Sequence record: OQ561750
Strand: one strand, 5' to 3'
Length of the DNA: 64,000 nucleotides
DNA from: Escherichia phage LHE83
A model generated the notes under the pieces. That model made no database searches. It worked only from the letters and a program-made list of their open reading frames with translations, and was not told where the DNA came from. Both the position numbers and the translations under genes were made by a program. Below are positions 6,570-61,810 of this stretch, piece by piece. Within the stretch, counting starts at the first letter, position 1, and every line of letters starts with the position of its first letter.

Positions 6570-7993
6570 AAACTATTTTGGCTCAACTGCTAGGCAATAG
6601 TGATTATTTCACTAAGGTCTGGCCTTATATGAATGATTCTTATTTTGACCAGGGTCCTGCAAAGACCCTTTTCAAAGAAATTAAAAAACACGTCAATGAA
6701 TATAATGCAGTGCCTTCTAAGAACGCGCTGAGCATTGCATTAGATAACAGCACGCTTTCAGAAGTTGAACACCAAGGCGCTAAAGAGCTTTTAAGTTCAC
6801 TGAATGCCGGACCTGAAGACCAAGAATGGTTGGTTAAAGAGACGGAGAAATACGTTCAGAAAGCAGCGATGTATAATGCAACTTCAAAAATCATTGAAAT
6901 CCAAACTAATGCAGACCTTCCGGTTGAGCAACAAAATAGAAAACTTCCAGGTATTGGTGCTATTCCAGATATCATGCGTGATGCATTATCGATTTGTTTC
7001 GATTCTGAATTAGGTCATGACTGGATGGATGACTATGAAGAACGTTTCAAAAGTTATTCTGATAAAGCACGTAAGGTTCCGTTCCGTCTTAATATTCTGA
7101 ATAAGATTACCAAAGGTGGTGCCGAGTTTGGTACTGAAAACGTATTGTTGGCAGGAACAAACGTAGGTAAGTCTCTTGGTCTTTGTTCATTGGCTGCTGA
7201 TTATCTTCAATCTGGTTACGATGTTCTTTATATCTCCATGGAGATGGCAGAGGAAGTATGTGCTAAGCGTATCGATGCCAACCTTCTGGATGTGTCACTG
7301 GATGATATCGATGACGGCCATGTCTCTTGGCCTGAATATAAAGCTAAGATGGATAAATGGCGTTCAACTGCTACTTTAGGTCGTTTAAAGATTAAACAGT
7401 ACCCTACCGGTGGCGCTAATGCCGATACATTCCGTGCATTATTAAACGAATACAAACTCAAACAAAACTTTGTTCCACAGGTCGTTATCGTCGACTACTT
7501 GGCCATCTGTGCATCATCTCGTACGAAAGTTTTCTCTGAAAACAGTTACGGATTGATTAAGATGGTAGCCGAAGAACTACGTGGACTTGCAGTAGAAAAG
7601 AAATTATTGTTGTGGACTGCAGCCCAGACTACTCGTGGTGCGAACGTTGCAGCCGAAATCGATATGGCTGATATTGCTGAATCCTTTGGTATTGCACATA
7701 CTGCAGACTTCATGTTAGGTGTGGTCGAGACAGAAGAGTTTGCTCAGATGGGTATGCAGATGGTTAAGCAGCTTAAATCTCGTTATGGTGATAAGAGCTA
7801 CTACAACAAATTTAAGATTGGTGTTAAGAAAGGAAATCAACGTTGGTACGAAGTTGAAGACGATTCCAACCCAGGCCAGGTGAACACCGTTCGTGAGGCT
7901 ACAGGTGAGATGAATCGTCAAGCCGAGGTCAATCGACAGACGCTTGTTAATAGAAGTGATTTGGACGATTTAGCAGCATCTATCAAATTTTAA
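6554..7993 (+). CDS. 41: replicative DNA helicase gp41 (DnaB-like)
   Basis: 479 aa; Walker A AGTNVGKS; strong match to T4 gp41 by recollection. Confidence 0.95.
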   Translation: MVEVVETILAQLLGNSDYFTKVWPYMNDSYFDQGPAKTLFKEIKKHVNEYNAVPSKNALSIALDNSTLSEVEHQGAKELLSSLNAGPEDQEWLVKETEKYVQKAAMYNATSKIIEIQTNADLPVEQQNRKLPGIGAIPDIMRDALSICFDSELGHDWMDDYEERFKSYSDKARKVPFRLNILNKITKGGAEFGTENVLLAGTNVGKSLGLCSLAADYLQSGYDVLYISMEMAEEVCAKRIDANLLDVSLDDIDDGHVSWPEYKAKMDKWRSTATLGRLKIKQYPTGGANADTFRALLNEYKLKQNFVPQVVIVDYLAICASSRTKVFSENSYGLIKMVAEELRGLAVEKKLLLWTAAQTTRGANVAAEIDMADIAESFGIAHTADFMLGVVETEEFAQMGMQMVKQLKSRYGDKSYYNKFKIGVKKGNQRWYEVEDDSNPGQVNTVREATGEMNRQAEVNRQTLVNRSDLDDLAASIKF

Positions 7994-8014
7994 GGAGCTT
8001 CGGCTCCTTTTTTG
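7994..8014 (+). terminator. intrinsic terminator after gene 41 (GGAGC-UUCG-GCUCC + U-run)
   Basis: Perfect stem with UUCG tetraloop followed by TTTTTTG. Confidence 0.8.
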
Positions 8015-8022
8015 TTTTAAGG

Positions 8023-8051
8023 GTTTACATCTCCTGTAGGCGTGATACTAT
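8023..8051 (+). promoter_or_regulatory. early sigma70-type promoter (GTTTAC -35, 17 bp, TGaTACTAT extended -10)
   Basis: Consensus hexamers and spacing; followed by CCTATCAAC and SD/ATG at 8076. Confidence 0.7.
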
Positions 8052-8597: not shown

Positions 8598-8657
8598 CAG
8601 TTTACATCAAAGGGATAATGCAGTATATTATCCCTATCAACTACCGAGGAGAACATT

Positions 8658-9789: not shown

Positions 9790-9951
9790 ATGAAATCTTT
9801 TAAAGAAGTTATGAACGAAGATATGGTCGCAGGCGATGCAGGTGGTAATCCTACTGCTATTGCCTCCGGAACTACCTCAGGCGCAGTCGTCAATAAAGGG
9901 CCTGAACAAATCCCATCTAAAAAGCGTAAAGAAAAATCCGAAAACGAATGA
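9790..9951 (+). CDS. small hypothetical protein (53 aa)
   Basis: Below ORF-track cutoff; SD AGGAG 5 nt upstream; ends TGA 9949-9951. Confidence 0.35.
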   Translation: MKSFKEVMNEDMVAGDAGGNPTAIASGTTSGAVVNKGPEQIPSKKRKEKSENE

Positions 9952-9989
9952 TATAATGGCTCTATTAATTTAGAGCCTAAGGAAAAATA

Positions 9990-11018
9990 ATGTCATATGT
10001 CGATAGAGAATTTGCTGTACGTGCCTTGAATTACCAACCTAAATTCAGACAAGTAACTGGTAGTGATTTTAAATTAAACTGTCGTTGTCGTGTATGTGGC
10101 GACTCCCAAAAAGATGAGAACAAAGCTCGTTTTTGGGCCTATCCGGCTAATGACGGCTCCGTAATGCTGCACTGTTTTAACTGTGACTATTCAGCAGGAA
10201 TTAAGAAGTATCTATACGAATATGAGCCTGATTTATATCGCGAATATATTCTTGAGAAACATAAAGAGCAATCGTTCGGGAGACAAGCGGCACCTAAGGT
10301 GGAGATATCAGAAAAGATTAAAGCCAAGATGCCTGTCATCGAAAAGCTTAATTTCTGTGAACGTCTGGATAGAATGCCAAACGACCATCCTATTATCAAA
10401 TATGTAACACTACGTTGCATTCCTGAAAACAAATGGAATCGGCTGTGGTTTACTAAAGAATGGCCTGCATTAGTTAACTCTGTCAATCCAGGGACCTATT
10501 CTAAAGAAATGCCTGAGCCTCGTTTGGTTATTCCTATTTTCAATAAGGATAAACAAATAGAAAGTTTTCAAGGTCGAGCCTTGCGTAAAGATGCTCCACA
10601 AAAATATATTACAATAAAGGCTCATGACCAAGCTACAAAAATATATGGAATGGATACAGTTGACGAACGTCAGTTGGTGTGGGTAATGGAAGGTCCTATT
10701 GATTCATTATTCGTACCGAATGCAATAGCAATTACTGGCGGGTCGTTGGACTTGGCTATGGTTCCATGTAAAGAAACTCGTGCCTGGGTAATGGACAATG
10801 AACCCCGCCATCCCGACACAATTAAGCGTATGCAACGATTAGTTGATGCTGGCGAAAGGGTTCTATTCTGGGACAAGGCTCCATGGCCTTCTAAAGATAT
10901 AAATGATATGATTATGAAAGATAAAGCTGATATAAATGATGTACTGGCATATATGAAAGCTAATATAGCCCAAGGTCTAATGGCTAAAATGAGACTTTCA
11001 AAATATTCTAAAATTTAG
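9990..11018 (+). CDS. 61: DNA primase gp61
   Basis: 342 aa, zinc-ribbon CRCRVCGD...HCFNC, same length as T4 gp61. Confidence 0.85.
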   Translation: MSYVDREFAVRALNYQPKFRQVTGSDFKLNCRCRVCGDSQKDENKARFWAYPANDGSVMLHCFNCDYSAGIKKYLYEYEPDLYREYILEKHKEQSFGRQAAPKVEISEKIKAKMPVIEKLNFCERLDRMPNDHPIIKYVTLRCIPENKWNRLWFTKEWPALVNSVNPGTYSKEMPEPRLVIPIFNKDKQIESFQGRALRKDAPQKYITIKAHDQATKIYGMDTVDERQLVWVMEGPIDSLFVPNAIAITGGSLDLAMVPCKETRAWVMDNEPRHPDTIKRMQRLVDAGERVLFWDKAPWPSKDINDMIMKDKADINDVLAYMKANIAQGLMAKMRLSKYSKI

Positions 11019-11215
11019 GCAGGAACTCCGCTAAAGAATCCAATTATGCTTAATACGTGTTCCATTGTAACCGCTGGTAAAATTATCCCTTGGCTAGCGG
11101 CTACAGGGACTACTAGAAGATTCCAAAGGAATACGTCTAGCGCAAGAAAACCTAACATCATTTTCTTGTCTTTCTTTTCGGCCAATTTCCAGATTTGGTA
11201 AAAAATACTGCCCAT
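11015..11215 (-). CDS. small membrane protein encoded antisense to the early gene direction
   Basis: 66-aa hydrophobic ORF with strong SD AGGAGG 5 nt upstream of ATG on minus strand. Confidence 0.5.
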   Translation of the reverse strand: MGSIFYQIWKLAEKKDKKMMLGFLALDVFLWNLLVVPVAASQGIILPAVTMEHVLSIIGFFSGVPA

Positions 11216-11306
11216 GTTATCCTCCTGTTAAATTAATATTTATTCGCTTTAATCTAACAGTTTATAATTATCTAACTTACTAATGAATTGAAAAGGAAAA
11301 AATATA

Positions 11307-11828
11307 ATGGCACACTTTAACGAATGCTCACAACTTATTGCTGGTGTTGATAAAGCTGAGGAAGCTTATTTTAATGCTCTGATTCACGAAGATAAAGACC
11401 CTCTGCAGGTTATGCTTGATATGCAGAAATCATTACAGGTCCGTTTGGCTAAAGATAAACCTGAATATAACCGTCATCCTGATGACTTGGCTACTGCAGG
11501 TGAAGTTGTTGATTGGTTGCGCAATCAGAAAGATTATATTGATGATGAATTCCGCGAACTTCTGACTTCTCTTGGTGGCATGAGCAATGGCGAAAAAGAT
11601 GCGAGCGCTGTATGGAAGCCTTGGAAAGCTCAACATGCTGAACGTCGTGAAACCCTGATTAACGATTTGTCTCCTGAAGACCAGCTCGAAATTAAATTCG
11701 AAATGATTGATATTCTGCACTTTGTTCTGAATATGTTCCAAGGTCTTGGACTGACTGCTGAAGAAATCTTTAAACTGTATTACCTGAAAAATGCCGAGAA
11801 CTTTGCTCGCCAGGACCGAGGTTATTAA
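11307..11828 (+). CDS. 56: dCTPase/dUTPase (MazG-like) gp56
   Basis: Size, position and similarity to T4 gp56 by recollection. Confidence 0.8.
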   Translation: MAHFNECSQLIAGVDKAEEAYFNALIHEDKDPLQVMLDMQKSLQVRLAKDKPEYNRHPDDLATAGEVVDWLRNQKDYIDDEFRELLTSLGGMSNGEKDASAVWKPWKAQHAERRETLINDLSPEDQLEIKFEMIDILHFVLNMFQGLGLTAEEIFKLYYLKNAENFARQDRGY

Positions 11829-11830
11829 GT

Positions 11831-11838
11831 TATAAATA
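11831..11838 (+). promoter_or_regulatory. late promoter TATAAATA upstream of soc
   Basis: Exact TATAAATA ~30 nt upstream of soc ATG. Confidence 0.7.
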
Positions 11839-11869
11839 CACCTGTAATTAAACAACAAAGGAGTTAATT

Positions 11870-12103
11870 ATGGGTGGTTTCGTTAATATTAAAACCTTTA
11901 CGCATCCGGCTGGTGAAGGTAAAGAAGTTAAAGGTGTTGAAGTATCTGTCCCGTTTGAAATCTATTCAAACGAGCATCGTATTGCGAATGCACACTATCA
12001 GACATTTCCTTCTGAAAAGGCGGCATACACTACTGTAGTAACTGATGCAGCCGATTGGCGAACTAAGAACGCGGCGATGTTTACGCCTACCCCAGTAGTT
12101 TAA
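11870..12103 (+). CDS. soc: small outer capsid protein Soc
   Basis: GFVNIKTF...AHYQTFPSEKAAY matches T4 Soc by recollection. Confidence 0.85.
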   Translation: MGGFVNIKTFTHPAGEGKEVKGVEVSVPFEIYSNEHRIANAHYQTFPSEKAAYTTVVTDAADWRTKNAAMFTPTPVV

Positions 12104-12109
12104 TTATAA

Positions 12110-12131
12110 GGAACCTTCGGGTTCCTTTTTT
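12110..12131 (+). terminator. intrinsic terminator (GGAACC-UUCG-GGUUCC + U6)
   Basis: Perfect hairpin with UUCG loop and TTTTTT; identical copy at 32079. Confidence 0.85.
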
Positions 12132-12197
12132 GGTTTTAAGGGTTTACTTTCTAAGAAGGTTATGTTAAGATGGTCTTATCTTATAGAGGAGAATGCT

Positions 12198-12407
12198 ATG
12201 TTAAATCGTTGGATTAAACCAAATAAAACTTTAGATGAAATTATCGCTAACCACGTATTGAAAAAGTACTTTTATACGCCTTGGTATACCGAAGTTATTG
12301 TCCATTCATTTATGATGCATGAAGACGGTTCTATCGAATTTAATGCCGAAATCCGTCACGAGACTGATGATATTGATAAAGTTGAATTTAAACGAGGTTT
12401 CCTATGA
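12198..12407 (+). CDS. hypothetical protein
   Basis: SD GAGGAG. Confidence 0.5.
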   Translation: MLNRWIKPNKTLDEIIANHVLKKYFYTPWYTEVIVHSFMMHEDGSIEFNAEIRHETDDIDKVEFKRGFL

Positions 12408-13756: not shown

Positions 13757-13785
13757 TTTTACACCTCCTCCCTTCATGTTATAAT
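13757..13785 (+). promoter_or_regulatory. early promoter (TTTTAC, 17 bp, TGtTATAAT)
   Basis: Hexamers/spacing; downstream hairpin GACCTC/GAGGTC contains SD. Confidence 0.65.
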
Positions 13786-13809
13786 GACCTCTAAATCACT
13801 GGAGGTCAT

Positions 13810-14379
13810 ATGAACATCGAACAAAAATGTCTTTATCAAGACCGAATCAATTCCAAATTCTCAAAACACGAACAGAATCTTTTAGAAAAATGTCTAGATG
13901 CTAAAAAGGACCCTAACTTCCATTACGACCTTGATAAGCTAGTTCGTAAGCATGTTACTTCAGCGGTTCCGGTAGAGCTTTATCGTGGGATTACCGCTAT
14001 GGAACTTGAGCAACTTGAAGTTCTTTCTGTTGGGTGCCAGTGGTCTCCTGGCCGGGTTACTTCTTTTAGTACACAATACTCACAGGCTCGTCAGTTCGCA
14101 GGGGCATGGGAATATGGAACCAGAACCATTTTAAGTCTCAGGAATGCACCGTTCATTTTCGACTACTATAACCATGCTATCGACCTTGTTCTTGCAGGGA
14201 ATGTAGATGAGCTTGAAATAGATGAAACCCGTATAGACCTCTACGATATGGTCGAAACTGAATGTGAGTTCATGGTCTCCAGCCAATCACGATTTGAGAT
14301 TGTGGAAATCGAAACTATCAAAAGGGACCCGTACGAAATCGAGTACAAAACAATTCATTTAAAAATGTTGGATTTTTAG
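13810..14379 (+). CDS. modB: ADP-ribosyltransferase, ModB-like
   Basis: TSAVPVELYRGI (Arg motif) and C-terminal acidic ExE-like region; paralog of next gene; position as T4 modB. Confidence 0.55.
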   Translation: MNIEQKCLYQDRINSKFSKHEQNLLEKCLDAKKDPNFHYDLDKLVRKHVTSAVPVELYRGITAMELEQLEVLSVGCQWSPGRVTSFSTQYSQARQFAGAWEYGTRTILSLRNAPFIFDYYNHAIDLVLAGNVDELEIDETRIDLYDMVETECEFMVSSQSRFEIVEIETIKRDPYEIEYKTIHLKMLDF

Positions 14380-14433
14380 TTTACAGGCAAGGAAGCTTGT
14401 GGTACTATCTTTCTATCAACTGAGGAGAATAAT

Positions 14434-18487: not shown

Positions 18488-18516
18488 GTTTACTTCTCCT
18501 CATGACATGTTATTAT
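18488..18516 (+). promoter_or_regulatory. early promoter (GTTTAC, 17 bp, TGtTATTAT) flanked by 10-bp inverted repeat
   Basis: Arms TCTCCTCATG 18495-18504 and CATGAGGAGA 18529-18538; the 3' arm contains the SD. Confidence 0.7.
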
Positions 18517-18543
18517 CTACCCTATCAACATGAGGAGAACAAA

Positions 18544-19053
18544 ATGAAAATTTATCGAGTCGAGTCATCGTTCAGTATCTTAGATAACAGCGATGTTATA
18601 GCAATCACTCACCAACAGTGCCGCCAATTAACACCGTATAGAGGCTCGTTTGATGAATGGAGCGAAGGTTGGTTATTAGAAGTAGGTTTCGACAGACCCA
18701 ATTTTAGGCACCACCATACCAATAATAAAAATATTCCGCTACCAGGTCAAGACAAGTTGTTGGTGGAAAATTCTAATAAAAGCATTAGAACTAAGTGGAA
18801 CCAGCCTGATTATGAAGGCTGTGATGATTATATTCCAGGTTGGTTTGTTAATCTCTACCATTTTGCTTTTGCCAGTGAGTATGATATGATGCGCTGGTTC
18901 ACTCGTGAAGAGCGTGAAGAATTATCTTCTAAAGGATTCTATCTTGCCGTTTACGAAATCCCTGAAGATGAGGTTGTCATTGGTGGCCGCCAAGTAATGT
19001 TCCGCAAATCCCATGCTGAACTCGTAGATTTTATTGAATTGAGAACAATATGA
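18544..19053 (+). CDS. hypothetical protein
   Basis: SD GAGGAG. Confidence 0.55.
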   Translation: MKIYRVESSFSILDNSDVIAITHQQCRQLTPYRGSFDEWSEGWLLEVGFDRPNFRHHHTNNKNIPLPGQDKLLVENSNKSIRTKWNQPDYEGCDDYIPGWFVNLYHFAFASEYDMMRWFTREEREELSSKGFYLAVYEIPEDEVVIGGRQVMFRKSHAELVDFIELRTI

Positions 19054-19598
19054 AATTTAATTACAACCCTAAATACACCCCGAATCCGGCAGCTAAACTG
19101 ATTGATTTTGATGTTTTAAGCACTTATGTATGCCCTGTTAAACCACTGGAAATTAAGGAACCTGCTATGAATACTCAGACTATCGAAATCGGCAAAACCT
19201 ACAAACTGGTTGAACCTGAAATTAAAACTAAGGCCTTGATTTCCGGCCATAAAACCCTGACTGATGTTTTTGGTGAAGGCGAATTTATTGTTGAAGAATT
19301 TGCCAAAAGTGAGTGGTTCTCTAAAGCCTATATTCTCCACGGCCGTCGTTTAGACAATAACAAAATTGAGCAAACCCTGGTTTATGAAGATGAGTTCATC
19401 CTGTTCCAAGAAGTTGAAGAACAAGACCCTACCGACCTTCTAACTCGTGCTGTGTCTATCCGTCGTCCTTTTGATAATCCTATCTGTGGATGGGTAACAG
19501 ACCAGTGGGTTGAAGACGGTGTTGAGCTGCTGAACGTTGTACATGCTGGTGATTTTAGCGTAGTACCTCGTAGTGCAGTGGTTAATGTATTGAATTAG
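19050..19598 (+). CDS. hypothetical protein, tandem paralog A
   Basis: C-terminal GWVTDQWVEDGVELLNVV...VVP shared with next gene. Confidence 0.6.
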   Translation: MKFNYNPKYTPNPAAKLIDFDVLSTYVCPVKPLEIKEPAMNTQTIEIGKTYKLVEPEIKTKALISGHKTLTDVFGEGEFIVEEFAKSEWFSKAYILHGRRLDNNKIEQTLVYEDEFILFQEVEEQDPTDLLTRAVSIRRPFDNPICGWVTDQWVEDGVELLNVVHAGDFSVVPRSAVVNVLN

Positions 19599-19600
19599 TA

Positions 19601-19629
19601 GTTTACTTTATCGAGAGCCATGTTATAAT
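19601..19629 (+). promoter_or_regulatory. early promoter (GTTTAC, 17 bp, TGtTATAAT) embedded in 9-bp inverted repeat
   Basis: Arms GAGAGCCAT 19613-19621 / ATGGCTCTC 19628-19636. Confidence 0.7.
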
Positions 19630-19671
19630 GGCTCTCATGGAGAATAAACTTATTAACCAAGAGAGAAAATT

Positions 19672-20223: not shown

Positions 20224-20295
20224 AGTTTAAAAACAGTATACACTATGGTAGGGTAGTGATACTATTACCCTATCAACAAATGAGAGGAAAATAAA

Positions 20296-21095: not shown

Positions 21096-21356
21096 ATGAA
21101 ATATATTAATCGTTCTATTGCAGCTCTCGTATTAGCAGTTTCTTTGGTTGGATGTACTGATGCCGATAATGCTACCCGTGTATTGGATGCAAATGGCTAC
21201 GAACAAATCCAAATCACAGGATACAACCTATTTGGCTGCTCTGAAGATGATTTCCAACGTACAGGCTTTATTGCTGTGGGTCCGACAGGTAAAAGGGTTG
21301 AAGGAACTGTTTGTTCTGGATTATTCTTTAAAAAGTCGACCATTCGATTTGATTAA
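21096..21356 (+). CDS. predicted lipoprotein
   Basis: Lipobox LVGC. Confidence 0.55.
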   Translation: MKYINRSIAALVLAVSLVGCTDADNATRVLDANGYEQIQITGYNLFGCSEDDFQRTGFIAVGPTGKRVEGTVCSGLFFKKSTIRFD

Positions 21357-21372
21357 GGGCTTCGGCCCTTTT
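21357..21372 (+). terminator. intrinsic terminator (GGGC-UUCG-GCCC + U4)
   Basis: Hairpin plus T-run directly after stop. Confidence 0.7.
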
Positions 21373-23284: not shown

Positions 23285-23446
23285 ATGAGAAAGTACTGGG
23301 TTACGCTCGTCACCGGTGAATACGGTTATATCTGGACTGATACTAGACCTCAGTTTGCAGAATACGTGACTATTACAGTCGAGACATGGGACGGCGAAGT
23401 TTACCAAACCCGCGGACAAGTCTATAAGGTCGATTCAAGTAACTAA
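23285..23446 (+). CDS. small hypothetical protein
   Basis: SD AGGAG upstream of internal ATG of track ORF 23246. Confidence 0.45.
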   Translation: MRKYWVTLVTGEYGYIWTDTRPQFAEYVTITVETWDGEVYQTRGQVYKVDSSN

Positions 23447-23449
23447 TAA

Positions 23450-23467
23450 GGGCCTTCGGGCCCTTTT
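23450..23467 (+). terminator. intrinsic terminator (GGGCC-UUCG-GGCCC + U4)
   Basis: Hairpin + T-run. Confidence 0.7.
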
Positions 23468-28850: not shown

Positions 28851-28995
28851 GTAGCAAAATGTGGTGCCTTATTTGGTTGACCTGTATCCCAGTGATTTGC
28901 GTATGTTTTAGTTTATTGTTGTGAAAATTGGCATAAAACAGTGTACATCTCCATTAATCATGATATTATAGACCTATCAACTAATGGAGATGATT

Positions 28996-29106
28996 ATGAA
29001 AAACTTACTTAAAGCAATTTGGAACATGTTTGTGTTGTTAATGGTATTGAGCATTTTCCCAATCGTTTTTATGATTGACCATGTACGTGTATTCTTTAAT
29101 TTCTGA
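28996..29106 (+). CDS. small membrane peptide (36 aa)
   Basis: SD GGAGA; hydrophobic core; preceded by GTTTAC promoter. Confidence 0.5.
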   Translation: MKNLLKAIWNMFVLLMVLSIFPIVFMIDHVRVFFNF

Positions 29107-29339: not shown

Positions 29340-29684
29340 ATGTCTAAATTATTTTTTGGTAATCGCAACATTATGTTCTTTAAACAACTCAGCCTCCAAG
29401 ATGCATCGGTGGCATTCAATCAAAGTATGATTCCCGGTGTAGATTCAAAAATTATGACGAGTGCTGATTTCGTTTTCGTTCAAGACCCAGAAACAGGCTT
29501 TTATCGGTTCATTAAATTTCGTATGAGTATGGACCCAGGTTATCATAGTGCTTACTACGTGAGTTATGAAAACGTTATCAAAGAATTACGTGATACCTAT
29601 GGACGCGCTTTGAACCCGCTGAACAAGGTTTATAATGCTTCTTTTTATACGAGCGGATTTATTTTAGAACAGCTACAAAAATAG
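29340..29684 (+). CDS. hypothetical protein
   Basis: SD AAGGA. Confidence 0.5.
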   Translation: MSKLFFGNRNIMFFKQLSLQDASVAFNQSMIPGVDSKIMTSADFVFVQDPETGFYRFIKFRMSMDPGYHSAYYVSYENVIKELRDTYGRALNPLNKVYNASFYTSGFILEQLQK

Positions 29685-29712
29685 TTTACAACCTCGAGAA
29701 TCGTGTTATAAT
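29684..29712 (+). promoter_or_regulatory. early promoter (GTTTAC, 17 bp, TGtTATAAT) with flanking inverted repeat CGAGAA/TTCTCG
   Basis: Hexamers and spacing. Confidence 0.7.
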
Positions 29713-29761
29713 GGTTCTCGTTGACTGGATAACAAAACATTAATCTACTGAGGAAATTGAT

Positions 29762-30211
29762 ATGAATACTTATATGACTCGCCGTAACGTTCTGTCTGCT
29801 GGTGCTACTACTGTTGCTTATGTTAAGAACGGTGAATACCAAAATGGTAAACCTTCTAAAGAAATCTCTGCTCAGCCAGGCTTCTACTTCTTTGTTAAAG
29901 GTGGTGCTGATTCTCGTGTCGTAGCGGCTCGTTTTTATGTCGGTAATCAACGTTCGGCCCAAGGGCTCGACGGTATCGTGGCTAACATTCGTAAGAAACG
30001 TTCTCAATCAGCTCGCACTATGGCAGTGAACGGTGTTGTGTATGAAGTTCTTTATGTACCGGCTTCTAAGATGAAACCCCTGACTACAGGTTTTGGTAAG
30101 GGTCAAATTGCAATGGCTTTCACTCGTAATCATAGTTCCGACCTCCAGACACTGGAAGAAATGAACCGTATGTTGGCTGATAACTTTAAATTCATCCTGC
30201 AGGCTTACTAA
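29762..30211 (+). CDS. ndd: nucleoid disruption protein Ndd-like
   Basis: Size/position and C-terminus ...[17 protein letters not shown] resembling T4 Ndd by recollection. Confidence 0.6.
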
Positions 30212-32117: not shown

Positions 32118-32146
32118 GTTTACTTCTGCTTTAAACATGATACTAT
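32118..32146 (+). promoter_or_regulatory. early promoter (GTTTAC, 17 bp, TGaTACTAT) upstream of motA
   Basis: Hexamers/spacing. Confidence 0.7.
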
Positions 32147-32184
32147 AGACCTATCAAAACAATAGAGTGAAATGGAGATACAAA

Positions 32185-45601: not shown

Positions 45602-45630
45602 GTTTACTTCTTCTAGGGTCGTGATATAAT
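45602..45630 (+). promoter_or_regulatory. early promoter (GTTTAC, 17 bp, TGaTATAAT) upstream of rnh
   Basis: Hexamers/spacing; downstream hairpin GAACCTCT/AGAGGTTC (45631-45659) includes SD. Confidence 0.7.
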
Positions 45631-45661
45631 GAACCTCTACACTAATTGGACAGAGGTTCAT

Positions 45662-46609
45662 ATGAACGATTTAGATTTTTTACTTCCTGAAGAAGACCAA
45701 CAAAAAGATGGATTTTTACTCCTAGATTTCAGCCAAATCATTATGGCTGCAGCTTTCCAAGAGTTTGGTGAGAATGCTGGATTTCCTAAAGTAACTACCG
45801 CAATGCTTCGACACCTCGTGTTGAATTCAATTAAGAAAAACATTAAAGACTTCCGTAAACAAGGTTACAACCAATTAATTATTTGTGTTGATAACTCCAA
45901 ATCAGGTTATTGGCGTCGTCGTTATTCTTCTTATTATAAGAAAAACCGTGCTAAGGCTCGTGACGAATCACCATTTGACTGGGAAGGCCTATTTACAGCA
46001 ATGCATATTATTGTCGATGAATTGGAACATAATATGCCTTATATTGTTATGAATATCGATACAATCGAGGCTGATGACCATATTGCTGTATTGACTCGTA
46101 TCCTTACGGCTTTAGGTCACCCTGTTATGATTGGTTCTTCTGATGGTGACTTTACCCAACTTCATAAATTCCCTGGTGTAAAACAATGGTCCCCAATGCA
46201 GAAAAAATTCGTCAAAACAAAATCTGGTGATGCATTGCTTGATTGCGTGACTAAGGTTGTTAAAGGTGACCGTAAAGATAACGTCGCGAGTATTAAAGTT
46301 CGTGGTGATTACTGGTTGACGATGGTTGAAGGCGAACGTACTCCTAGCACTCGTGCCAAGGAACTTGAAGCAATTGCTCTGAATTATTATGACCATGATA
46401 TAATTAAAACACTTCTTACTGAAGAACAATATGAACGTTTCTGTGAAAACCAAATCTTAATTGATATGGACTTTATTCCAGATGATATTGTTGCTTTAAT
46501 TACTGAAAGATATAATACGTATAACAAACCTTCGAAATCTAAAGTTTATCCTTATTTCGTTAAATCAGGTTTGTCTAAACTAACTGCTACAGTAGCTGAT
46601 TTTTATTAA
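45662..46609 (+). CDS. rnh: RNase H (5'-3' exonuclease/flap endonuclease)
   Basis: DFSQII...CVDNSKSGYWRR...SSDGDFTQLHK matches T4 RNase H by recollection. Confidence 0.85.
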   Translation: MNDLDFLLPEEDQQKDGFLLLDFSQIIMAAAFQEFGENAGFPKVTTAMLRHLVLNSIKKNIKDFRKQGYNQLIICVDNSKSGYWRRRYSSYYKKNRAKARDESPFDWEGLFTAMHIIVDELEHNMPYIVMNIDTIEADDHIAVLTRILTALGHPVMIGSSDGDFTQLHKFPGVKQWSPMQKKFVKTKSGDALLDCVTKVVKGDRKDNVASIKVRGDYWLTMVEGERTPSTRAKELEAIALNYYDHDIIKTLLTEEQYERFCENQILIDMDFIPDDIVALITERYNTYNKPSKSKVYPYFVKSGLSKLTATVADFY

Positions 46610-49516: not shown

Positions 49517-49545
49517 GTTTACAATGCCTTTAAACGTGATACTAT
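49517..49545 (+). promoter_or_regulatory. early promoter (GTTTAC, 17 bp, TGaTACTAT)
   Basis: Hexamers/spacing; CCTATCAAC follows. Confidence 0.7.
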
Positions 49546-49573
49546 AGACCTATCAACTACATGAGGAAATAAA

Positions 49574-50227: not shown

Positions 50228-50256
50228 GTTTACAACGCCTTTAAACATGATACTAT
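50228..50256 (+). promoter_or_regulatory. early promoter (GTTTAC, 17 bp, TGaTACTAT)
   Basis: Near-identical to promoter at 49517. Confidence 0.7.
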
Positions 50257-50288
50257 AGACCTATCAACTAATGAGTGAGGAAAATAAA

Positions 50289-50516
50289 ATGGCTAAGGTT
50301 AATATTGATATCGTTGATTTTGAATACACTTACGAAGTTATCCGTAATCGTTATCCTTCTTTAGTTATGACCCATATTAAAGATACCCAATTCTGTAGTA
50401 TGCAAATTGAAGTCCAAGGTCCTCTTGAAGACCTTACCCGCTTTATGGCTGACGAGTATTGTGACGGTATGCACCCGGAAGACGCTAAATTTTATATGGG
50501 CTTGATTCAAGCTTAG
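50289..50516 (+). CDS. hypothetical protein
   Basis: SD GAGGA. Confidence 0.5.
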
Positions 50517-50575
50517 TGTACAAACCAACGGGAACATATTATCATGTTCCCTCAATTGAATATGAGGAAATTAAA

Positions 50576-50953: not shown

Positions 50954-51029
50954 AAAGTAGTATACACCCAAATGGGGCTATGATATAATGGTCCCATACT
51001 GAGATAACAACTAAACACCGGAGAATAAA

Positions 51030-55096: not shown

Positions 55097-55737
55097 TGAA
55101 TTATCAAAAAATCTATAACAACCTAATTTCCCGAGCTCAGGCTCGGGAACCTTTATCTGAATATAAAGAGAATCATCACATAATCCCTAGATGTTTAGGT
55201 GGTTCTGATGATAAGGAAAATCTGGTTTATCTTACTGGGCGCGAGCACTTTATTGCACACTGGCTTCTTACAAAGTTTAATGATTATCCAGGCCTCAACC
55301 AAGCCTTTGGCATGATGTGTCTCACTAATAAAAATAGGCAATATAATGTTTCTTCTAGGTTATACGAAATAGGTAAAAAGCTTTTATCGGAAGCCATGAC
55401 TGGTAAAGAAATGGCTGAAGAGACTAAGAAGAAAATTAGTGAGACTATGAAAGGAAGGGAATTTACCGAAGAGCATTTGGCTCGCATGAGAAAGCCTAAA
55501 ACCGAAGAAGCTAAAAAGAATATAGCTTCTGCCAAAGTTGGTGCGCTTAATCCTATGTATGGTACAATTTCTCCTACAAGAGATGTCCCTCATACTAAAG
55601 AGACATGTGATTTAATTTCTTTGAAGACCAAAGAGAGAACAGACTATCCACCTTGCCCACATTGTGGCAAGAAAGTTAACAAAGGTAATGCTTTAAGATG
55701 GCATTACGATAAATGCAAATTTAAGGATTCTAAATGA
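55096..55737 (+). CDS. mobE: HNH homing endonuclease (MobE-like) with NUMOD-type repeats
   Basis: HHIIPRCLGGSDDKENLVYLTGREHFIAH HNH motif; repeated ...KKNIASAKVG / ETKKKISETMKG; between nrdA and nrdB as T4 mobE. Confidence 0.7.
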   Translation: MNYQKIYNNLISRAQAREPLSEYKENHHIIPRCLGGSDDKENLVYLTGREHFIAHWLLTKFNDYPGLNQAFGMMCLTNKNRQYNVSSRLYEIGKKLLSEAMTGKEMAEETKKKISETMKGREFTEEHLARMRKPKTEEAKKNIASAKVGALNPMYGTISPTRDVPHTKETCDLISLKTKERTDYPPCPHCGKKVNKGNALRWHYDKCKFKDSK

Positions 55738-56912
55738 GTACAGTTTTTAATACCGAACAGGTTGATGTTTTATCAGAACCTATGTTCTTTGGTTCAGGAT
55801 TAGGATTGGCCCGTTATGACATCCAGCGCCATAAAGTATTTGAAGAACTCTGTGAAAAGCAACTCGGATTTTTTTGGAGACCCGAGGAAGTTAACTTGAT
55901 GATGGACGGTGCTCAATTTAATAAGCTTCCACAATTCCAACAAAATATTTTTACCAATAACCTGAAGTATCAATCACTTCTGGATAGTATCCAAGGACGT
56001 GCTCCTTCTGCTGCACTTCAAGCCTTGATTTCAGACCCTAGCCTTGATACATGGGTGGCTACATGGACCTTTAGTGAGACTATTCACTCTCGTTCATATA
56101 CCCATATCATGCGTAACCTCTATACAGACCCGTCAAAGGTATTTGATGAAATTCTGTTAGATGACGCTATTATGAAACGTGCTGAATCTATTGGTCGTTA
56201 TTACGACGACGTTATTGAGAAAACTCGCTATTGGCAGAATGCTAAAGCTGATATCGAATACCAAAAAGAAATTAATGCAGACGAAGACGATATTGAAGAT
56301 GCTATTGAGCATGAGATGTATTGGAAGCGTGAGCTAATGAAATCCCTTTACCTTTGCCTTCATGTAATCAACGCATTGGAAGCTATTCGTTTTTATGTAT
56401 CTTTCGCATGCACCTTTAACTTCCATAAAAACATGGAAATCATGGAAGGTAATGCTAAGATTATGAAGTTCATTGCACGTGATGAACAGCTTCACCTTAA
56501 GGGTACCCAGTACATTATTCGTCAACTTCAACTTGGTACTGATGGTGATGAATGGGTTAAAATTGCTCAAGAGTGTGAACAAGAAGCAGTTGATATTTTC
56601 ATGGAAGTTAACCGTCAAGAAAAAGAATGGGCAGCTCACCTGTTCAAAGATGGTACTTGCCCTGGATTAAATACTCAGAACATGGGTGCTTTTGTCGATT
56701 ACCTGACAGTTTCTCGTATGAAGCAATGTGGCTTACCGTGTCCTATTACCGATGCTCCTGCCCGCCATCCTTATCCTTGGATTCGCGAATACCTGAACTC
56801 TGATGCTGTACAGGCTGCTCCTCAGGAAGTGGAAATCAGTTCTTACCTTGTAGCACAAATTGATAACGATGTCGATGAAAAAGTAATGGCATCGTACAAG
56901 AAATATTTTTAA
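55734..56912 (+). CDS. nrdB: ribonucleoside-diphosphate reductase beta subunit (intron-less)
   Basis: 392 aa; di-iron ligands, continuous ORF. Confidence 0.9.
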   Translation: MSTVFNTEQVDVLSEPMFFGSGLGLARYDIQRHKVFEELCEKQLGFFWRPEEVNLMMDGAQFNKLPQFQQNIFTNNLKYQSLLDSIQGRAPSAALQALISDPSLDTWVATWTFSETIHSRSYTHIMRNLYTDPSKVFDEILLDDAIMKRAESIGRYYDDVIEKTRYWQNAKADIEYQKEINADEDDIEDAIEHEMYWKRELMKSLYLCLHVINALEAIRFYVSFACTFNFHKNMEIMEGNAKIMKFIARDEQLHLKGTQYIIRQLQLGTDGDEWVKIAQECEQEAVDIFMEVNRQEKEWAAHLFKDGTCPGLNTQNMGAFVDYLTVSRMKQCGLPCPITDAPARHPYPWIREYLNSDAVQAAPQEVEISSYLVAQIDNDVDEKVMASYKKYF

Positions 56913-57353: not shown

Positions 57354-58498
57354 TTGAATTATATGATAACTTGATGGCCCTGGTTAAAAACTCGACTAAA
57401 TCTAAGTTCTTCTTTAAAGACTTTCAGAGTGCGCTAGGAGTCAACTATCGCATCTTTAGTTATAACTATGCATCGTACAGTGATTGGTTGGAAGACGGCG
57501 CACTAGAGTGCCGAGGCATTATGTTTGAAATGGACGAGAACGGTCCAGTACGTATTGCTGCTCGTCCTATGCAAAAGTTCTTTAACCTTGACGAAAACCC
57601 TCTGACCATCGGTCTAGATTTGTCACCAGAAAATATTGACCTCGTAATGGCTAAGGAAGATGGTTCTCTGATTTCTACATTCATGGACCGACAGTATCTT
57701 TCTGTTAAATCTAAAGGCTCTATCCATTCATCAATGGTGCATGATTCTTTACGGTTCCTTCGTCTCCCTGAGAACGAGGCCTTTGCCGCACGTCTAGAAG
57801 AAATCACCAAAGCTGGGTATACCTGCAACCTTGAATATGTAGCACCTACCAACCGTATCGTTCTGGCTTACCAAGAAACAAACCTCATCCTGTTGAACGT
57901 TCGTAATAATGAAACAGGTGAATATATTCCGTATGCTGAATTGTTTAAAGATGGTGCCCTGCGTAAGCATTTGGTTGAAAGCTATGACCTCGCTGAAGGT
58001 GATTTCGTAGAAAACATCCGTAAGAAGGAAGGCATTGAAGGTTTCATCTTTGTACTGAAAGATGGTACGTTCTTTAAACTCAAAACCGCCTGGTACAGTG
58101 CACTGCATCATACCAAAGATTCCATTAACAACAACGAACGTTTGTTTGAAGTTGTAGTGGCTGGTGGAACTGATGACCTTCGTGGTCTGTTCAGTACAGA
58201 TTCCTTTGCTATCGAGAAAATCGATGCCTTTGAACGCATCCATTTAGATTACCTAGAACAATCATTAGCCTTGTTAGAAGCAGCTTACTCTCAACTCAAA
58301 GGTCGCGACCGTAAAGACTATGCCGTTACTGGACAGCTAATCCTTAAGGACTTCCCAGGGTTGTTCTCTATTCTTATGCAGGCGTACGTAGGTGGTATTA
58401 ATTACGATACGGTTGTAGACCAGATTAACTCTGTGTTCTTGAAAAATCATAAGGCCCAAATCCCTGAAAAATATTTGAAAGAAATTGTGGTAGAGTAG
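57350..58498 (+). CDS. rnlA: RNA ligase 1
   Basis: FFFKDF...YRIFSYNYASYSDW...ECRGIMFE matches T4 RnlA (gene 63). Confidence 0.85.
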   Translation: MIELYDNLMALVKNSTKSKFFFKDFQSALGVNYRIFSYNYASYSDWLEDGALECRGIMFEMDENGPVRIAARPMQKFFNLDENPLTIGLDLSPENIDLVMAKEDGSLISTFMDRQYLSVKSKGSIHSSMVHDSLRFLRLPENEAFAARLEEITKAGYTCNLEYVAPTNRIVLAYQETNLILLNVRNNETGEYIPYAELFKDGALRKHLVESYDLAEGDFVENIRKKEGIEGFIFVLKDGTFFKLKTAWYSALHHTKDSINNNERLFEVVVAGGTDDLRGLFSTDSFAIEKIDAFERIHLDYLEQSLALLEAAYSQLKGRDRKDYAVTGQLILKDFPGLFSILMQAYVGGINYDTVVDQINSVFLKNHKAQIPEKYLKEIVVE

Positions 58499-58526
58499 TT
58501 TACATCTCCTCATGATGTGTTAGTAT
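58498..58526 (+). promoter_or_regulatory. early promoter (GTTTAC, 17 bp, TGtTAGTAT) with 9-bp inverted repeat sequestering SD
   Basis: Arms TCTCCTCAT 58505-58513 / ATGAGGAGA 58541-58549. Confidence 0.7.
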
Positions 58527-58556
58527 AGACTTACCAACTAATGAGGAGAAAACAAA

Positions 58557-59057
58557 ATGAATATGCAAATGATTACTAACGAAATGGTTGTTAAGGCTTT
58601 TGGTGACTCTACTGACGGTATCCAAGTTTTTAAAGGTTCTCGTGCAGTAGGTTACCTGACCGATCTTCGTGTTACTTTAGCCAAAAATGCTAAAAAGAAA
58701 ATCAAGCAAAAAGAATACTCTACCCGTTATGCTGAAGAAAAGCGTGAAGCCATGCCTGAAGCTGTCAACTCTATGGTTGAGTTTCTCCAAAACAACCTTT
58801 CCAAGTACGATGCCGAGGTATTCATTAACATCAGCCAGCCTAATGTTAAAATCTCAGGCATCACGTTCTATTTGATTTGCGACCCATTAAGCGACAAGTT
58901 TAATCGCCTTGGCATTTCAAGTCCTTACCATACCGCTGAAGAATTGTGTTTTATGTTCGAAACGTACAAAATTCAGTGTGAAAATCCTAAAACAGTTCTT
59001 ATTAATTCCCTGTCACGTGATGACATCATCGAGATTATTACCAAATGTCTAAATTAA
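58557..59057 (+). CDS. alc: Alc-like protein (transcription terminator on cytosine-DNA)
   Basis: 166 aa, position downstream of rnlA as in T4. Confidence 0.6.
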   Translation: MNMQMITNEMVVKAFGDSTDGIQVFKGSRAVGYLTDLRVTLAKNAKKKIKQKEYSTRYAEEKREAMPEAVNSMVEFLQNNLSKYDAEVFINISQPNVKISGITFYLICDPLSDKFNRLGISSPYHTAEELCFMFETYKIQCENPKTVLINSLSRDDIIEIITKCLN

Positions 59058-59685: not shown

Positions 59686-59789
59686 TTGAGACATGTGTTT
59701 GCGGTTGGGATGCCGTTAGATTTGGCGCTGCATTCTTTTGTTTTGGGATTGTGTTCAGCATGTGTATGCATGGTCTTTTCGGAAAGTAG
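59682..59789 (+). CDS. small membrane peptide (35 aa)
   Basis: SD GAGGAG; ATGA overlap with o-spanin stop; Cys-rich hydrophobic. Confidence 0.45.
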   Translation: MIETCVCGWDAVRFGAAFFCFGIVFSMCMHGLFGK

Positions 59790-59852
59790 TTTACAAACTC
59801 TTGGGAGCAGAGTATAATGCTCCTACGGATTATAAAAATTGAGGAAATTATT

Positions 59853-61748: not shown

Positions 61749-61810
61749 GTGTTTACACTATGGTAGGACTGTGGTATAGTAGTCCTACCGAAACAAATGA
61801 GGAAATCGAA

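Follow-up and report, generated by a model that had tools for sequence, protein, structure and literature searches.

Hairpin arms embedded in the early promoters of Escherichia phage LHE83: two designs, one predicted to mask the ribosome-binding site in read-through RNA

Stem-loops embedded in T4-type early promoters (PeSLs) have been described for RB49 and phi1 and later for T4/PST and KVP40/nt-1 (Arbiol et al. 2010, PMC2839356; Comeau et al. 2014, PMC4122927), and both papers take them to terminate or attenuate transcription and to serve in recombination. The words ‘translation’ and ‘ribosome’ are absent from Arbiol 2010 (PMC2839356), and the available passages of Comeau 2014 (PMC4122927) mention neither. 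A second body of work concerns masked ribosome-binding sites (RBSs) that are relieved by an internal promoter, which a review (PMC3014915) reports for e, soc, 49 and I-TevI of T4 and for mobE of Aeh1. Here we analyse a 64,000-nucleotide (nt) stretch of Escherichia phage LHE83 (record OQ561750; hereafter, the window), in which 13 of 23 early promoters hold one hairpin arm upstream of their own assumed start site.

A sequence-only reading of the window had singled out the motB promoter and proposed that inverted repeats within early promoters sequester the −10 region and the Shine–Dalgarno (SD) sequence in read-through RNA, thereby tying translation of each gene to its own promoter. The precedent that it invoked is sound, as promoter-tied translation is known for a few T4 genes (e, soc, 49 and I-TevI; PMC3014915), though with later-class promoters. 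Our results support the proposal in part. Masking is the right interpretation in principle for a conserved subset of promoters (5 of 23 in the window and about 18% of a wider pool), is wrong at the motB site and is not systematic. We consider it probable that these elements are sigma-70-type early promoters with a hairpin arm 5′ of the start site, and that they follow two designs: an SD type, which would mask the RBS in read-through RNA only, and a type A, which would leave the RBS free.

Two hairpin designs in early promoters

The promoters consist of GTTTAC, a 17–18-base-pair (bp) spacer that ends in TGn, and TAnnAT. The motif as it had literally been written, GTTTAC-17 bp-TGnTAYTAT, has no match in the window, as TGn belongs within the 17–18-bp spacer; the exact pattern GTTTAC-N17-TAnnAT has 11 matches (0.23 expected). 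When an 18-bp spacer or one −35 mismatch is also allowed, 23 credible early promoters are found on the plus strand, each with an SD and an ATG downstream, and the earlier count of at least 20 stands with the corrected geometry. All 23 sites show the hallmarks of T4-type early promoters (a GTTTAC-like −35, TGn at the end of the spacer, TAnnAT, an A-rich upstream element and an early gene), the consensus for which is given in PMC2988021, and the early promoters of T4 have the same architecture. A generic sigma-70 scan showed no promoter enrichment (56 compared with 53 expected) and was useful only for locating canonical terminators.

All five inverted repeats quoted in the sequence-only reading are present, including TCTCCTCAT 58505–58513 / ATGAGGAGA 58541–58549 at alc and CGAGAA 29695–29700 / TTCTCG 29715–29720 at P29684. 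Pairing between spacer and downstream leader also exceeds chance, the comparison with shuffled sequence on which that reading had staked its claim. A spacer–leader duplex of −10 kcal/mol or lower occurs in 12 of the 23 promoters; 1,000 spacer shuffles gave 1.4 such promoters on average and never more than 6, and spacers re-paired with the leaders of other promoters gave 3.2 on average and never more than 8. The best helix per promoter reaches −10 kcal/mol or better at 13 of 23. As the 5′ arm lies upstream of the promoter’s own assumed start, RNA initiated there lacks it, and formation of the hairpin requires a sense transcript that has run through the promoter from an earlier start.

These helices fall into two classes. 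In the five SD-type promoters, the 3′ arm spans the SD and ends 0–7 nt before the ATG, with helices of −13 to −16 kcal/mol. At P18488, P28941 and P58498 the 5′ arm lies within the spacer, as had been described; at modB and rnh it spans the last two bases of the −10 and the discriminator, which is still 5′ of the start site if transcription begins 7–9 nt past the −10. In the eight type A promoters, the −10 lies in or at a loop of 6–10 nt (−10 to −16 kcal/mol), and the 3′ arm ends about 6–12 nt past the −10, near the assumed start site and 18–41 nt before the ATG. P8023, P12142 and P23472 have weak SD pairing only, and the remaining seven promoters have no notable helix. The statement that the 3′ arm often includes the SD is thus correct for five strong and about three weak cases of 23 and incorrect for the rest, and two of the five strong ones have a 5′ arm outside the spacer.

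SD-type promoters of the window:
13757–13812, plus strand: modB promoter (P13757), −35 TTTTAC; 5′ arm ATGACCTC 13784–13791, 3′ arm GAGGTCAT 13802–13809, formed by the SD and reaching to the ATG at 13810
18488–18546, plus strand: motB.2-like promoter (P18488); spacer 5′ arm TTCTCCTCATG 18494–18504, 3′ arm CATGAGGAGAA 18529–18539 over the SD; ATG 18544
28941–28998, plus strand: promoter of a 36-amino-acid open reading frame (ORF) (P28941), −35 GTGTAC; 5′ arm CATCTCCATTAAT 28946–28958, 3′ arm ACTAATGGAGATG 28980–28992 over the SD; z −3.35
45602–45664, plus strand: rnh promoter (P45602); 5′ arm ATGAACCTC 45629–45637, 3′ arm GAGGTTCAT 45653–45661, which is the SD up to the ATG at 45662; z −3.1
58498–58559, plus strand: alc promoter (P58498); 5′ arm TCTCCTCAT(GA) 58505–58515, 3′ arm (TA)ATGAGGAGA 58539–58549; ATG 58557

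Type A promoters of the window:
8600–8635, plus strand: P8600; AGGGATAAT 8611–8619 / ATTATCCCT 8627–8635
19601–19629, plus strand: motB early promoter (P19601); −35 GTTTAC 19601–19606, 17-bp spacer ending in TGT, −10 TATAAT 19624–19629; ATG 19672
19613–19636, plus strand: type A hairpin of the motB promoter; GAGAGCCAT 19613–19621 / ATGGCTCTC 19628–19636, 9 bp, 6-nt loop with most of the −10, −15 kcal/mol
20236–20275, plus strand: cef promoter (P20236), −35 GTATAC; TGGTAGGGTAGT 20246–20257 / ATTACCCTATCA 20264–20275
29684–29720, plus strand: P29684; CGAGAATCGT 29695–29704 / ATGGTTCTCG 29711–29720, ending 41 nt before the ATG at 29762
50516–50551, plus strand: P50516; GGGAACAT 50530–50537 / ATGTTCCC 50544–50551
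50960–50997, plus strand: frd.1-like promoter (P50960); ATGGGGCTAT 50972–50981 / ATGGTCCCAT 50988–50997
59789–59825, plus strand: P59789; TGGGAGCA 59802–59809 / TGCTCCTA 59818–59825
61751–61792, plus strand: P61751; GGTAGGACT 61762–61770 / AGTCCTACC 61781–61789, extendable to 61759–61792, loop with the −10 TATAGT; ATG 61811

The motB hairpin (gene named from the WG01 annotation and PHROG 1671) is confined to sequence 5′ of the assumed start site, with 35 nt between its end and the ATG. When read-through RNA is folded, it grows to 19596–19655 (−25.5 kcal/mol, z −4.0), and the SD at about 19660 is unpaired. The 3′ arm of the repeat at 19613–19636 excludes the SD, and in the folding the RBS is as open as in the promoter’s own transcript; RBS masking fails as an account of this hairpin and of the seven others with the −10 in the loop. 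To speak of sequestering a −10 in RNA is functionally meaningless, as this element works at the DNA level. Next to the hairpin, in its 3′ flank, there is also a GGAG (19639–19642), about 30 nt 5′ of the real SD (GAGAGA), that is kept in the T4 motB leader (GTGGAGTA) and could be a RegB cleavage site.

To compare transcripts, the cost of opening the RBS was computed for −15 to +5 around the ATG, both in the promoter’s own transcript (from the assumed start site) and in read-through RNA (from 60 nt 5′ of the −35). The own transcripts of the five SD-type genes are predicted to be nearly unstructured (0 to −3 kcal/mol), with RBS opening at 1–4 kcal/mol. In read-through RNA, the predicted cost rises by 15 kcal/mol at P18488, 14.7 at modB, 12.5 at P28941, 11.3 at rnh and 7.8 at alc, compared with a change of merely −2.3 to +3.4 kcal/mol at type A sites; the modB read-through fold reaches −19.3 kcal/mol (z −4.6). 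At P13757, P18488, P28941, P45602 and P58498 the SD and/or AUG are predicted to be paired in upstream transcripts, and their 5′ arms are either located in the spacer or finish no more than about 7 nt past the −10, 5′ of the assumed start. The proposed occlusion in read-through RNA only is therefore borne out by folding at five promoters (predicted +8–15 kcal/mol) and not at the others. A penalty of at least 7 kcal/mol was predicted for 4 of 23 promoter genes and 1 of 55 promoter-less controls.

Under the proposed mechanism, an anti-SD segment of an SD-type promoter (in the spacer, or between the last −10 bases and the start site) would pair with the SD, sometimes up to the AUG. The RBS would then be buried in read-through RNA and open in RNA from the gene’s own early promoter, and such genes would be translated mainly from their own immediate-early transcript; a possible additional effect is that GGAG would be hidden from the RegB nuclease in longer transcripts. 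In type A, the compact hairpin would end near +1 and leave the RBS free. Our best guess is that type A serves as a transcript-boundary element, with the promoter sequence tied up in the hairpin, such that the downstream site stays open and/or the 3′ side of the upstream cistron is protected.

Pooled promoters and covariation of the arms

The window, T4 and some 90 loci of T4-like phages in IMG/VR together yielded a pool of 316 unique promoter-to-ATG sequences. Locus diversity was supplied by queries with NrdA and a 459-amino-acid protein, and the motB.2-like protein and Dda gave 11 and 7 loci, respectively; T4 was represented by 1–100 kb, and 119–169 kb was added later for the listing of T4 classes. 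A helix with a score of at least 8 occurs in 39% of the pool, compared with 7.5% when spacers are shuffled. These helices comprise 67 of type A and 56 of the SD type (about 18% of the 316), with a median stem of 11 bp in both classes, a median loop of 6 nt (type A) and 18 nt (SD type), and a median distance from the end of the 3′ arm to the ATG of 21 nt and 4 nt, respectively.

Folding of 36 pooled promoters per class gave an RBS opening cost of 2.8–3.3 kcal/mol in the own transcript for every class. In read-through RNA, the predicted cost is 14.3 kcal/mol for the SD type, 6.5 for helix-less promoters and 3.2 for type A, the last compared with 4.4 with a shuffled spacer (Wilcoxon p 2e-7). In silico, type A hairpins thus seem to act as insulators that keep the downstream site open; they may also serve as a 3′-side stabilizer of the upstream cistron or as a weak attenuator.

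In T4 itself, SD-type helices are found at motB.2, denV, regB, nrdC.8, modB, alc, 30.8 and alt.-3, and type A hairpins at ipI, mobD.2, dmd, 30.7 and motB. The T4 promoters of alc (ATG at about 136275) and alt.-3 (ATG 123032) lie 13 kb from each other and are built on nearly the same 60-nt cassette (GTCCCTCGTGTTGTGTTATAGTAGTCTTACTRACATAACATGAGGA), each with a helix that masks the SD.

The arms diverge between orthologues and continue to pair, and at alc and motB.2 the helix is supported by compensatory changes among T4-like genera. For alc, 15 of 16 unique promoter-bearing orthologues have an 11–15-bp helix between spacer and SD, with up to four pair types per position and arms as different as TCTCCTCAT / ATGAGGAGA, TCCTCATTTCGTT / AACGAAATGAGGA, TCTCCATTTGGTT / AACCAAATGGAGA and CCTCGTGTTGTGTTA / TGACATAACATGAGG. 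An alc spacer pairs with its own leader at −17.6 kcal/mol and with the leaders of other orthologues at −10.6 (none of 2,000 permutations was as good). In a MAFFT alignment, both sides have changed in 7 of 15 pairs, and the covariation score is 0.313, where shuffles score 0.161 (0 of 500) and slid registers no higher than 0.155. Part of the stem is offset by one column between the window and T4 groups, so that this alignment understates the pairing, and a helix-anchored count of pairs was used beside the score. At modB, T4 has the same layout with other bases (ATGATAGCTTC / GAGGCTATCAT), and at motB.2 the arms of the window (TTCTCCTCATG / CATGAGGAGAA) and of T4 (TCCTCGGT / ACTGAGGA) differ by two compensatory changes.

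Type A arms also co-vary. The motB promoter of T4 carries GGGACC / GGTCCC at the position of GAGAGCCAT / ATGGCTCTC in the window. Among P50960 orthologues, whole arms are exchanged and pairing is kept (−12.8 compared with −7.9 kcal/mol; none of 2,000 permutations as good). Close relatives have GGTCTAT / ATAGACC in place of the P8600 arms, and orthologues of P61751 have different arms, for example CGGTAGAG / CTCTACCA; P8600, P50960 and P61751 are orthologous sites at which the cassettes differ. The P59789 cassette (GTTTACAAACTCTTGGGAGCAGAGTATAATGCTCC, 59789–59835) is nearly that of the T4 motB promoter (…GGGACCAGAGTATAATGGTCCC), with one compensatory G–C to C–G change in the stem and unrelated genes downstream.

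Read-through RNA and competing explanations

Within the helices, the sense strand has 30 G·U and 11 A·C oppositions (p 0.009), counted at positions outside TGn and the −10 with each arm pair taken once, an excess that indicates pairing in sense RNA. Canonical terminators and embedded helices exclude one another: a terminator lies directly 5′ of the −35 at 56 of 193 helix-less promoters and at 2 of 123 helix promoters (Fisher 1.4e-11). The median gap from the stop codon of the preceding gene to the −35 is 2–3 nt for helix promoters and 38 nt for the others; at alc, the −35 overlaps the rnlA stop codon. With terminators scarce and the stop codon adjoining the −35, the helices therefore sit where read-through is expected.

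In the window, the promoters with an upstream terminator are P8023, P12142, P23472, P32118 and P49517. Intrinsic terminators adjoin the −35 of several early promoters and also precede gene 39, and those promoters lack strong embedded hairpins.

Intrinsic terminators of the window:
7992–8009, plus strand: AAGGAGC-UUCG-GCUCCUU with a U-run, directly 5′ of P8023 (region 7992–8051), which has just weak TCTCC / GGAGA pairing
12108–12127, 21355–21370, about 23445–23465, and 5′ of P32118 and P49517: other textbook intrinsic terminators (G+C stem, UUCG tetraloop, U-run)

Several points weigh against masking as a general property or as the function of these helices. Start sites were taken to be 6–8 nt 3′ of the −10 and are predicted positions. 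Across the 23 promoters, the mean read-through RBS cost is 7.2 kcal/mol, compared with 6.4 with shuffled spacers, and the 23 genes are indistinguishable in this cost from the 55 promoter-less plus-strand genes (Mann–Whitney p 0.23). Masking is not significantly above either control, and the description ‘apparently systematic’ has to be withdrawn. Relatedness among the pooled sequences makes their p-values optimistic, and the insulation effect of type A is small (median −1.2 kcal/mol). Part of the ‘covariation’ is replacement of whole cassettes, which is PeSL behaviour, and not stepwise compensation; the replaced cassettes nonetheless each carry their own complementary arms. Finally, a PeSL stem-loop from RB49 was a strong terminator in a reporter, lowering lacZ as much as rrnB T1 did (PMC2839356).

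The reporter result favours the interpretation of Arbiol 2010 and Comeau 2014, in which the stem-loops terminate or attenuate upstream transcription and the promoter with its stem-loop is mainly a recombination site for gene shuffling. Helices and terminators that are mutually exclusive, as alternatives would be, and cassettes that recur and swap between orthologous sites are also in keeping with it. We nevertheless regard this account as unlikely here. None of the 123 helices has a U-rich tail (at least five T in the next 8 nt; mean 1.5–1.7 T) although the phage has textbook terminators elsewhere, and a terminator scan flagged none of the 13 strong embedded hairpins; a classical terminator function was rejected on the lack of a U-tract. 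SD-type loops are about 18 nt long, the 3′ arm is the SD itself and the covariation is specific to that pairing. Recombination, moreover, leaves the complementarity of the arms unexplained. The modA promoter (P14379) has a weaker hairpin wholly in the −35 and spacer (ACAGGC / GCTTGT, 14381–14402), followed by T-rich TACTATCTTTCT, that the terminator scan did flag; in one relative it is ACGAG / CTCGT, a compensatory A–U to G–C change, and it could be an attenuator for modB transcripts.

A proposal that is compatible with masking is that the SD-type helix mainly hides the GGAG of the SD from the RegB endoribonuclease in long middle-period transcripts, such that polycistronic RNA stays intact and early-promoter RNA is cut. 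The SD contains GGAG in 86% of SD-type promoters and about 51% of the others, and according to PMC3014915, GGAG is protected by secondary structure and most middle transcripts are refractory to RegB; together these suggest a link to RegB, and the T4 regB promoter bears an SD-type helix itself. The enrichment may equally be a detection bias, as G+C-rich SDs give stronger helices, and the SD of rnh (GAGG) has no GGAG. Masking would block translation as well, and the two effects are inseparable here. We judge shielding as the main role to be somewhat unlikely. Translational coupling, in which the helix shuts the downstream site until the ribosome that ends the upstream gene melts it and read-through RNA is translated in step, would suit an upstream stop 2–3 nt from the −35, which places terminating ribosomes near the 5′ arm. 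Yet the 5′ arm begins a median of 11–14 nt past that stop and within 6 nt in just 6–13% of cases, and the arms of modB and rnh are more than 30 nt away. Given the usual footprint of a ribosome, the 5′ arm would start just past the reach of one terminating on the upstream gene. Ribosome-mediated unmasking was rejected on this geometry, and we hold coupling to be improbable. The prospect that the repeats act in DNA, as cruciforms or by tuning promoter strength, or are chance by-products of duplicated cassettes has in its favour that they lie in promoter DNA, have AT-rich centres and belong to cassettes that recur in the genome. It seems very improbable: the G·U bias led us to reject cruciforms and other DNA-level functions, SD-type arms are 18–27 nt apart with an RNA signal as the 3′ arm, and the excess over shuffles and the covariation speak against chance.

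Promoter-keyed masking at the SD-type sites thus remains our preferred account of that subset. In its widest form, it would be a conserved switch of T4-like phages, T4 included: about one-fifth of early promoters would carry an anti-SD arm; host-shutoff and regulatory genes such as alc, modB, regB and motB.2 would have a single translatable and RegB-sensitive message, their own immediate-early transcript, and be silent and RegB-proof on longer ones; and a second hairpin class would keep the RBS open in read-through RNA. We advance this form tentatively, at somewhat less than even chances. If the SD-type helices behave as predicted, early promoters set which transcripts are translatable, besides when genes are transcribed, and toxic host-takeover proteins (Alc, ModB and RegB) would be confined to the first minutes of infection despite continuing transcription. 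It would offer a structural reason for the abrupt halt of early protein synthesis and for the RegB resistance of middle transcripts (both reported in PMC3014915), and would explain why identical GGAG sites are cut in early and not in middle transcripts. Phage genome engineering would also be affected, as removing or moving an early promoter would alter translation of the next gene. The same elements occur in T4 at alc, regB, modB, motB.2, nrdC.8 and denV, which makes the idea testable in the best-studied phage.

Gene context and comparison with known systems

The 4 kb around the motB site are 99.3% identical to Escherichia phage LQ5 and 94–95% identical to the Dhakaviruses WG01 and QL01. Judged by sequence, the window is the early region of a Dhakavirus-type T4-like coliphage, in an orientation opposite to that of the conventional T4 map. 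Gene names were taken from annotated relatives and PHROG matches. No Rfam family matched anywhere in the window at the gathering score.

Genes assigned from relatives and PHROG, all on the plus strand (start codon in brackets):
mrh, modB (ATG 13810), modA (14434), srd (15187), dda and dexA
motB.2-like gene (18544), motB (19672), cef (20296), gene 39 and rIIA
rnh (45662), gene 32, frd.2, frd.1, nrdA, nrdB, denA and rnlA
alc (58557), pseT and cd

The 36-amino-acid ORF downstream of P28941 (28996–29106) matches PHROG 3098 (E 4e-21), a conserved family of phage proteins with no assigned function, and falls below the 50-amino-acid cut-off of the ORF list. The alc gene (58557–59057; PHROG 1253, inhibitor of host transcription) is intact in Bp7 (NC_019500, 13883–14380; protein identity 99.4%), where the RefSeq record leaves it unannotated and shows a gap between rnlA and pseT.3. 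Window nrdB (55734–56912) is a single unbroken ORF of 392 amino acids; that of Bp7 (9965–12230) is annotated as three pieces around an intron-like endonuclease gene.

A near-identical cassette, GCYTTTAAACRTGATACTATAGACCTATCAA, is common to three promoters (32118–32160, 49517–49560 and 50228–50270), and the string TACTATAGACCTATCAAC repeats after many −10 boxes, as expected of mobile PeSL-like cassettes. At 9949–9977, an extended −10-like TGATATAAT that lacks a GTTTAC −35 is followed immediately by a hairpin (GGCTCTA / TAGAGCC), just 5′ of the SD of a gene for 342 amino acids at 9990; this element may be a middle-type promoter. Apparent masking at the same gene (ATG 9990), one of the promoter-less controls, was rejected, as the fold is no better than shuffles (z −0.6).

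Compared with an intrinsic terminator followed by a promoter, the embedded helices likewise form an intergenic hairpin between an upstream gene and an early promoter. They differ in lying inside the promoter and in rarely adjoining a genuine terminator (2 of 123), and they lack the combination of G+C-rich stem, short loop and U-run that defines such terminators.

The masked genes e, soc, 49, I-TevI and mobE, as portrayed in the review, share with the SD type an SD and/or AUG held in a helix in upstream transcripts, and a promoter whose own transcript lacks the 5′ arm. In those genes a late (gp55) or middle promoter delays expression, whereas the promoters here are of the immediate-early sigma-70 type, not late (TATAAATA) or middle, and expression would be limited to the earliest period. 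Further differences are that the 5′ arm here is part of the spacer or of the stretch between the last −10 bases and the start site, and that the arrangement recurs at many genes (56 of 316 pooled promoters).

The likeness to PeSLs is close. In the available passages, PeSLs combine a strong sigma-70-type early promoter, an AT-rich upstream region and a stem-loop that overlaps the −35 and −10 or sits between them, with an SD and ATG downstream; the cassettes occur many times over in early regions and move from one site to another. Of the 23 window promoters, 13 have a stem-loop inside or adjoining the promoter, and the type A hairpins match the published class ‘overlapping the −10 box’. The hairpins here differ in having no U-tracts and, at the SD-type sites, in the long-range pairing of spacer with SD, which is not described in those passages; JS98-type phages receive only a passing mention there. 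Full-text literature searches found no description of spacer-to-SD pairing in early promoters, although the older T4 literature may hold one. The structural element is of a known kind, the PeSL. Masking of early genes that is keyed to their promoters appears to be a hitherto undescribed form of a mechanism already known.

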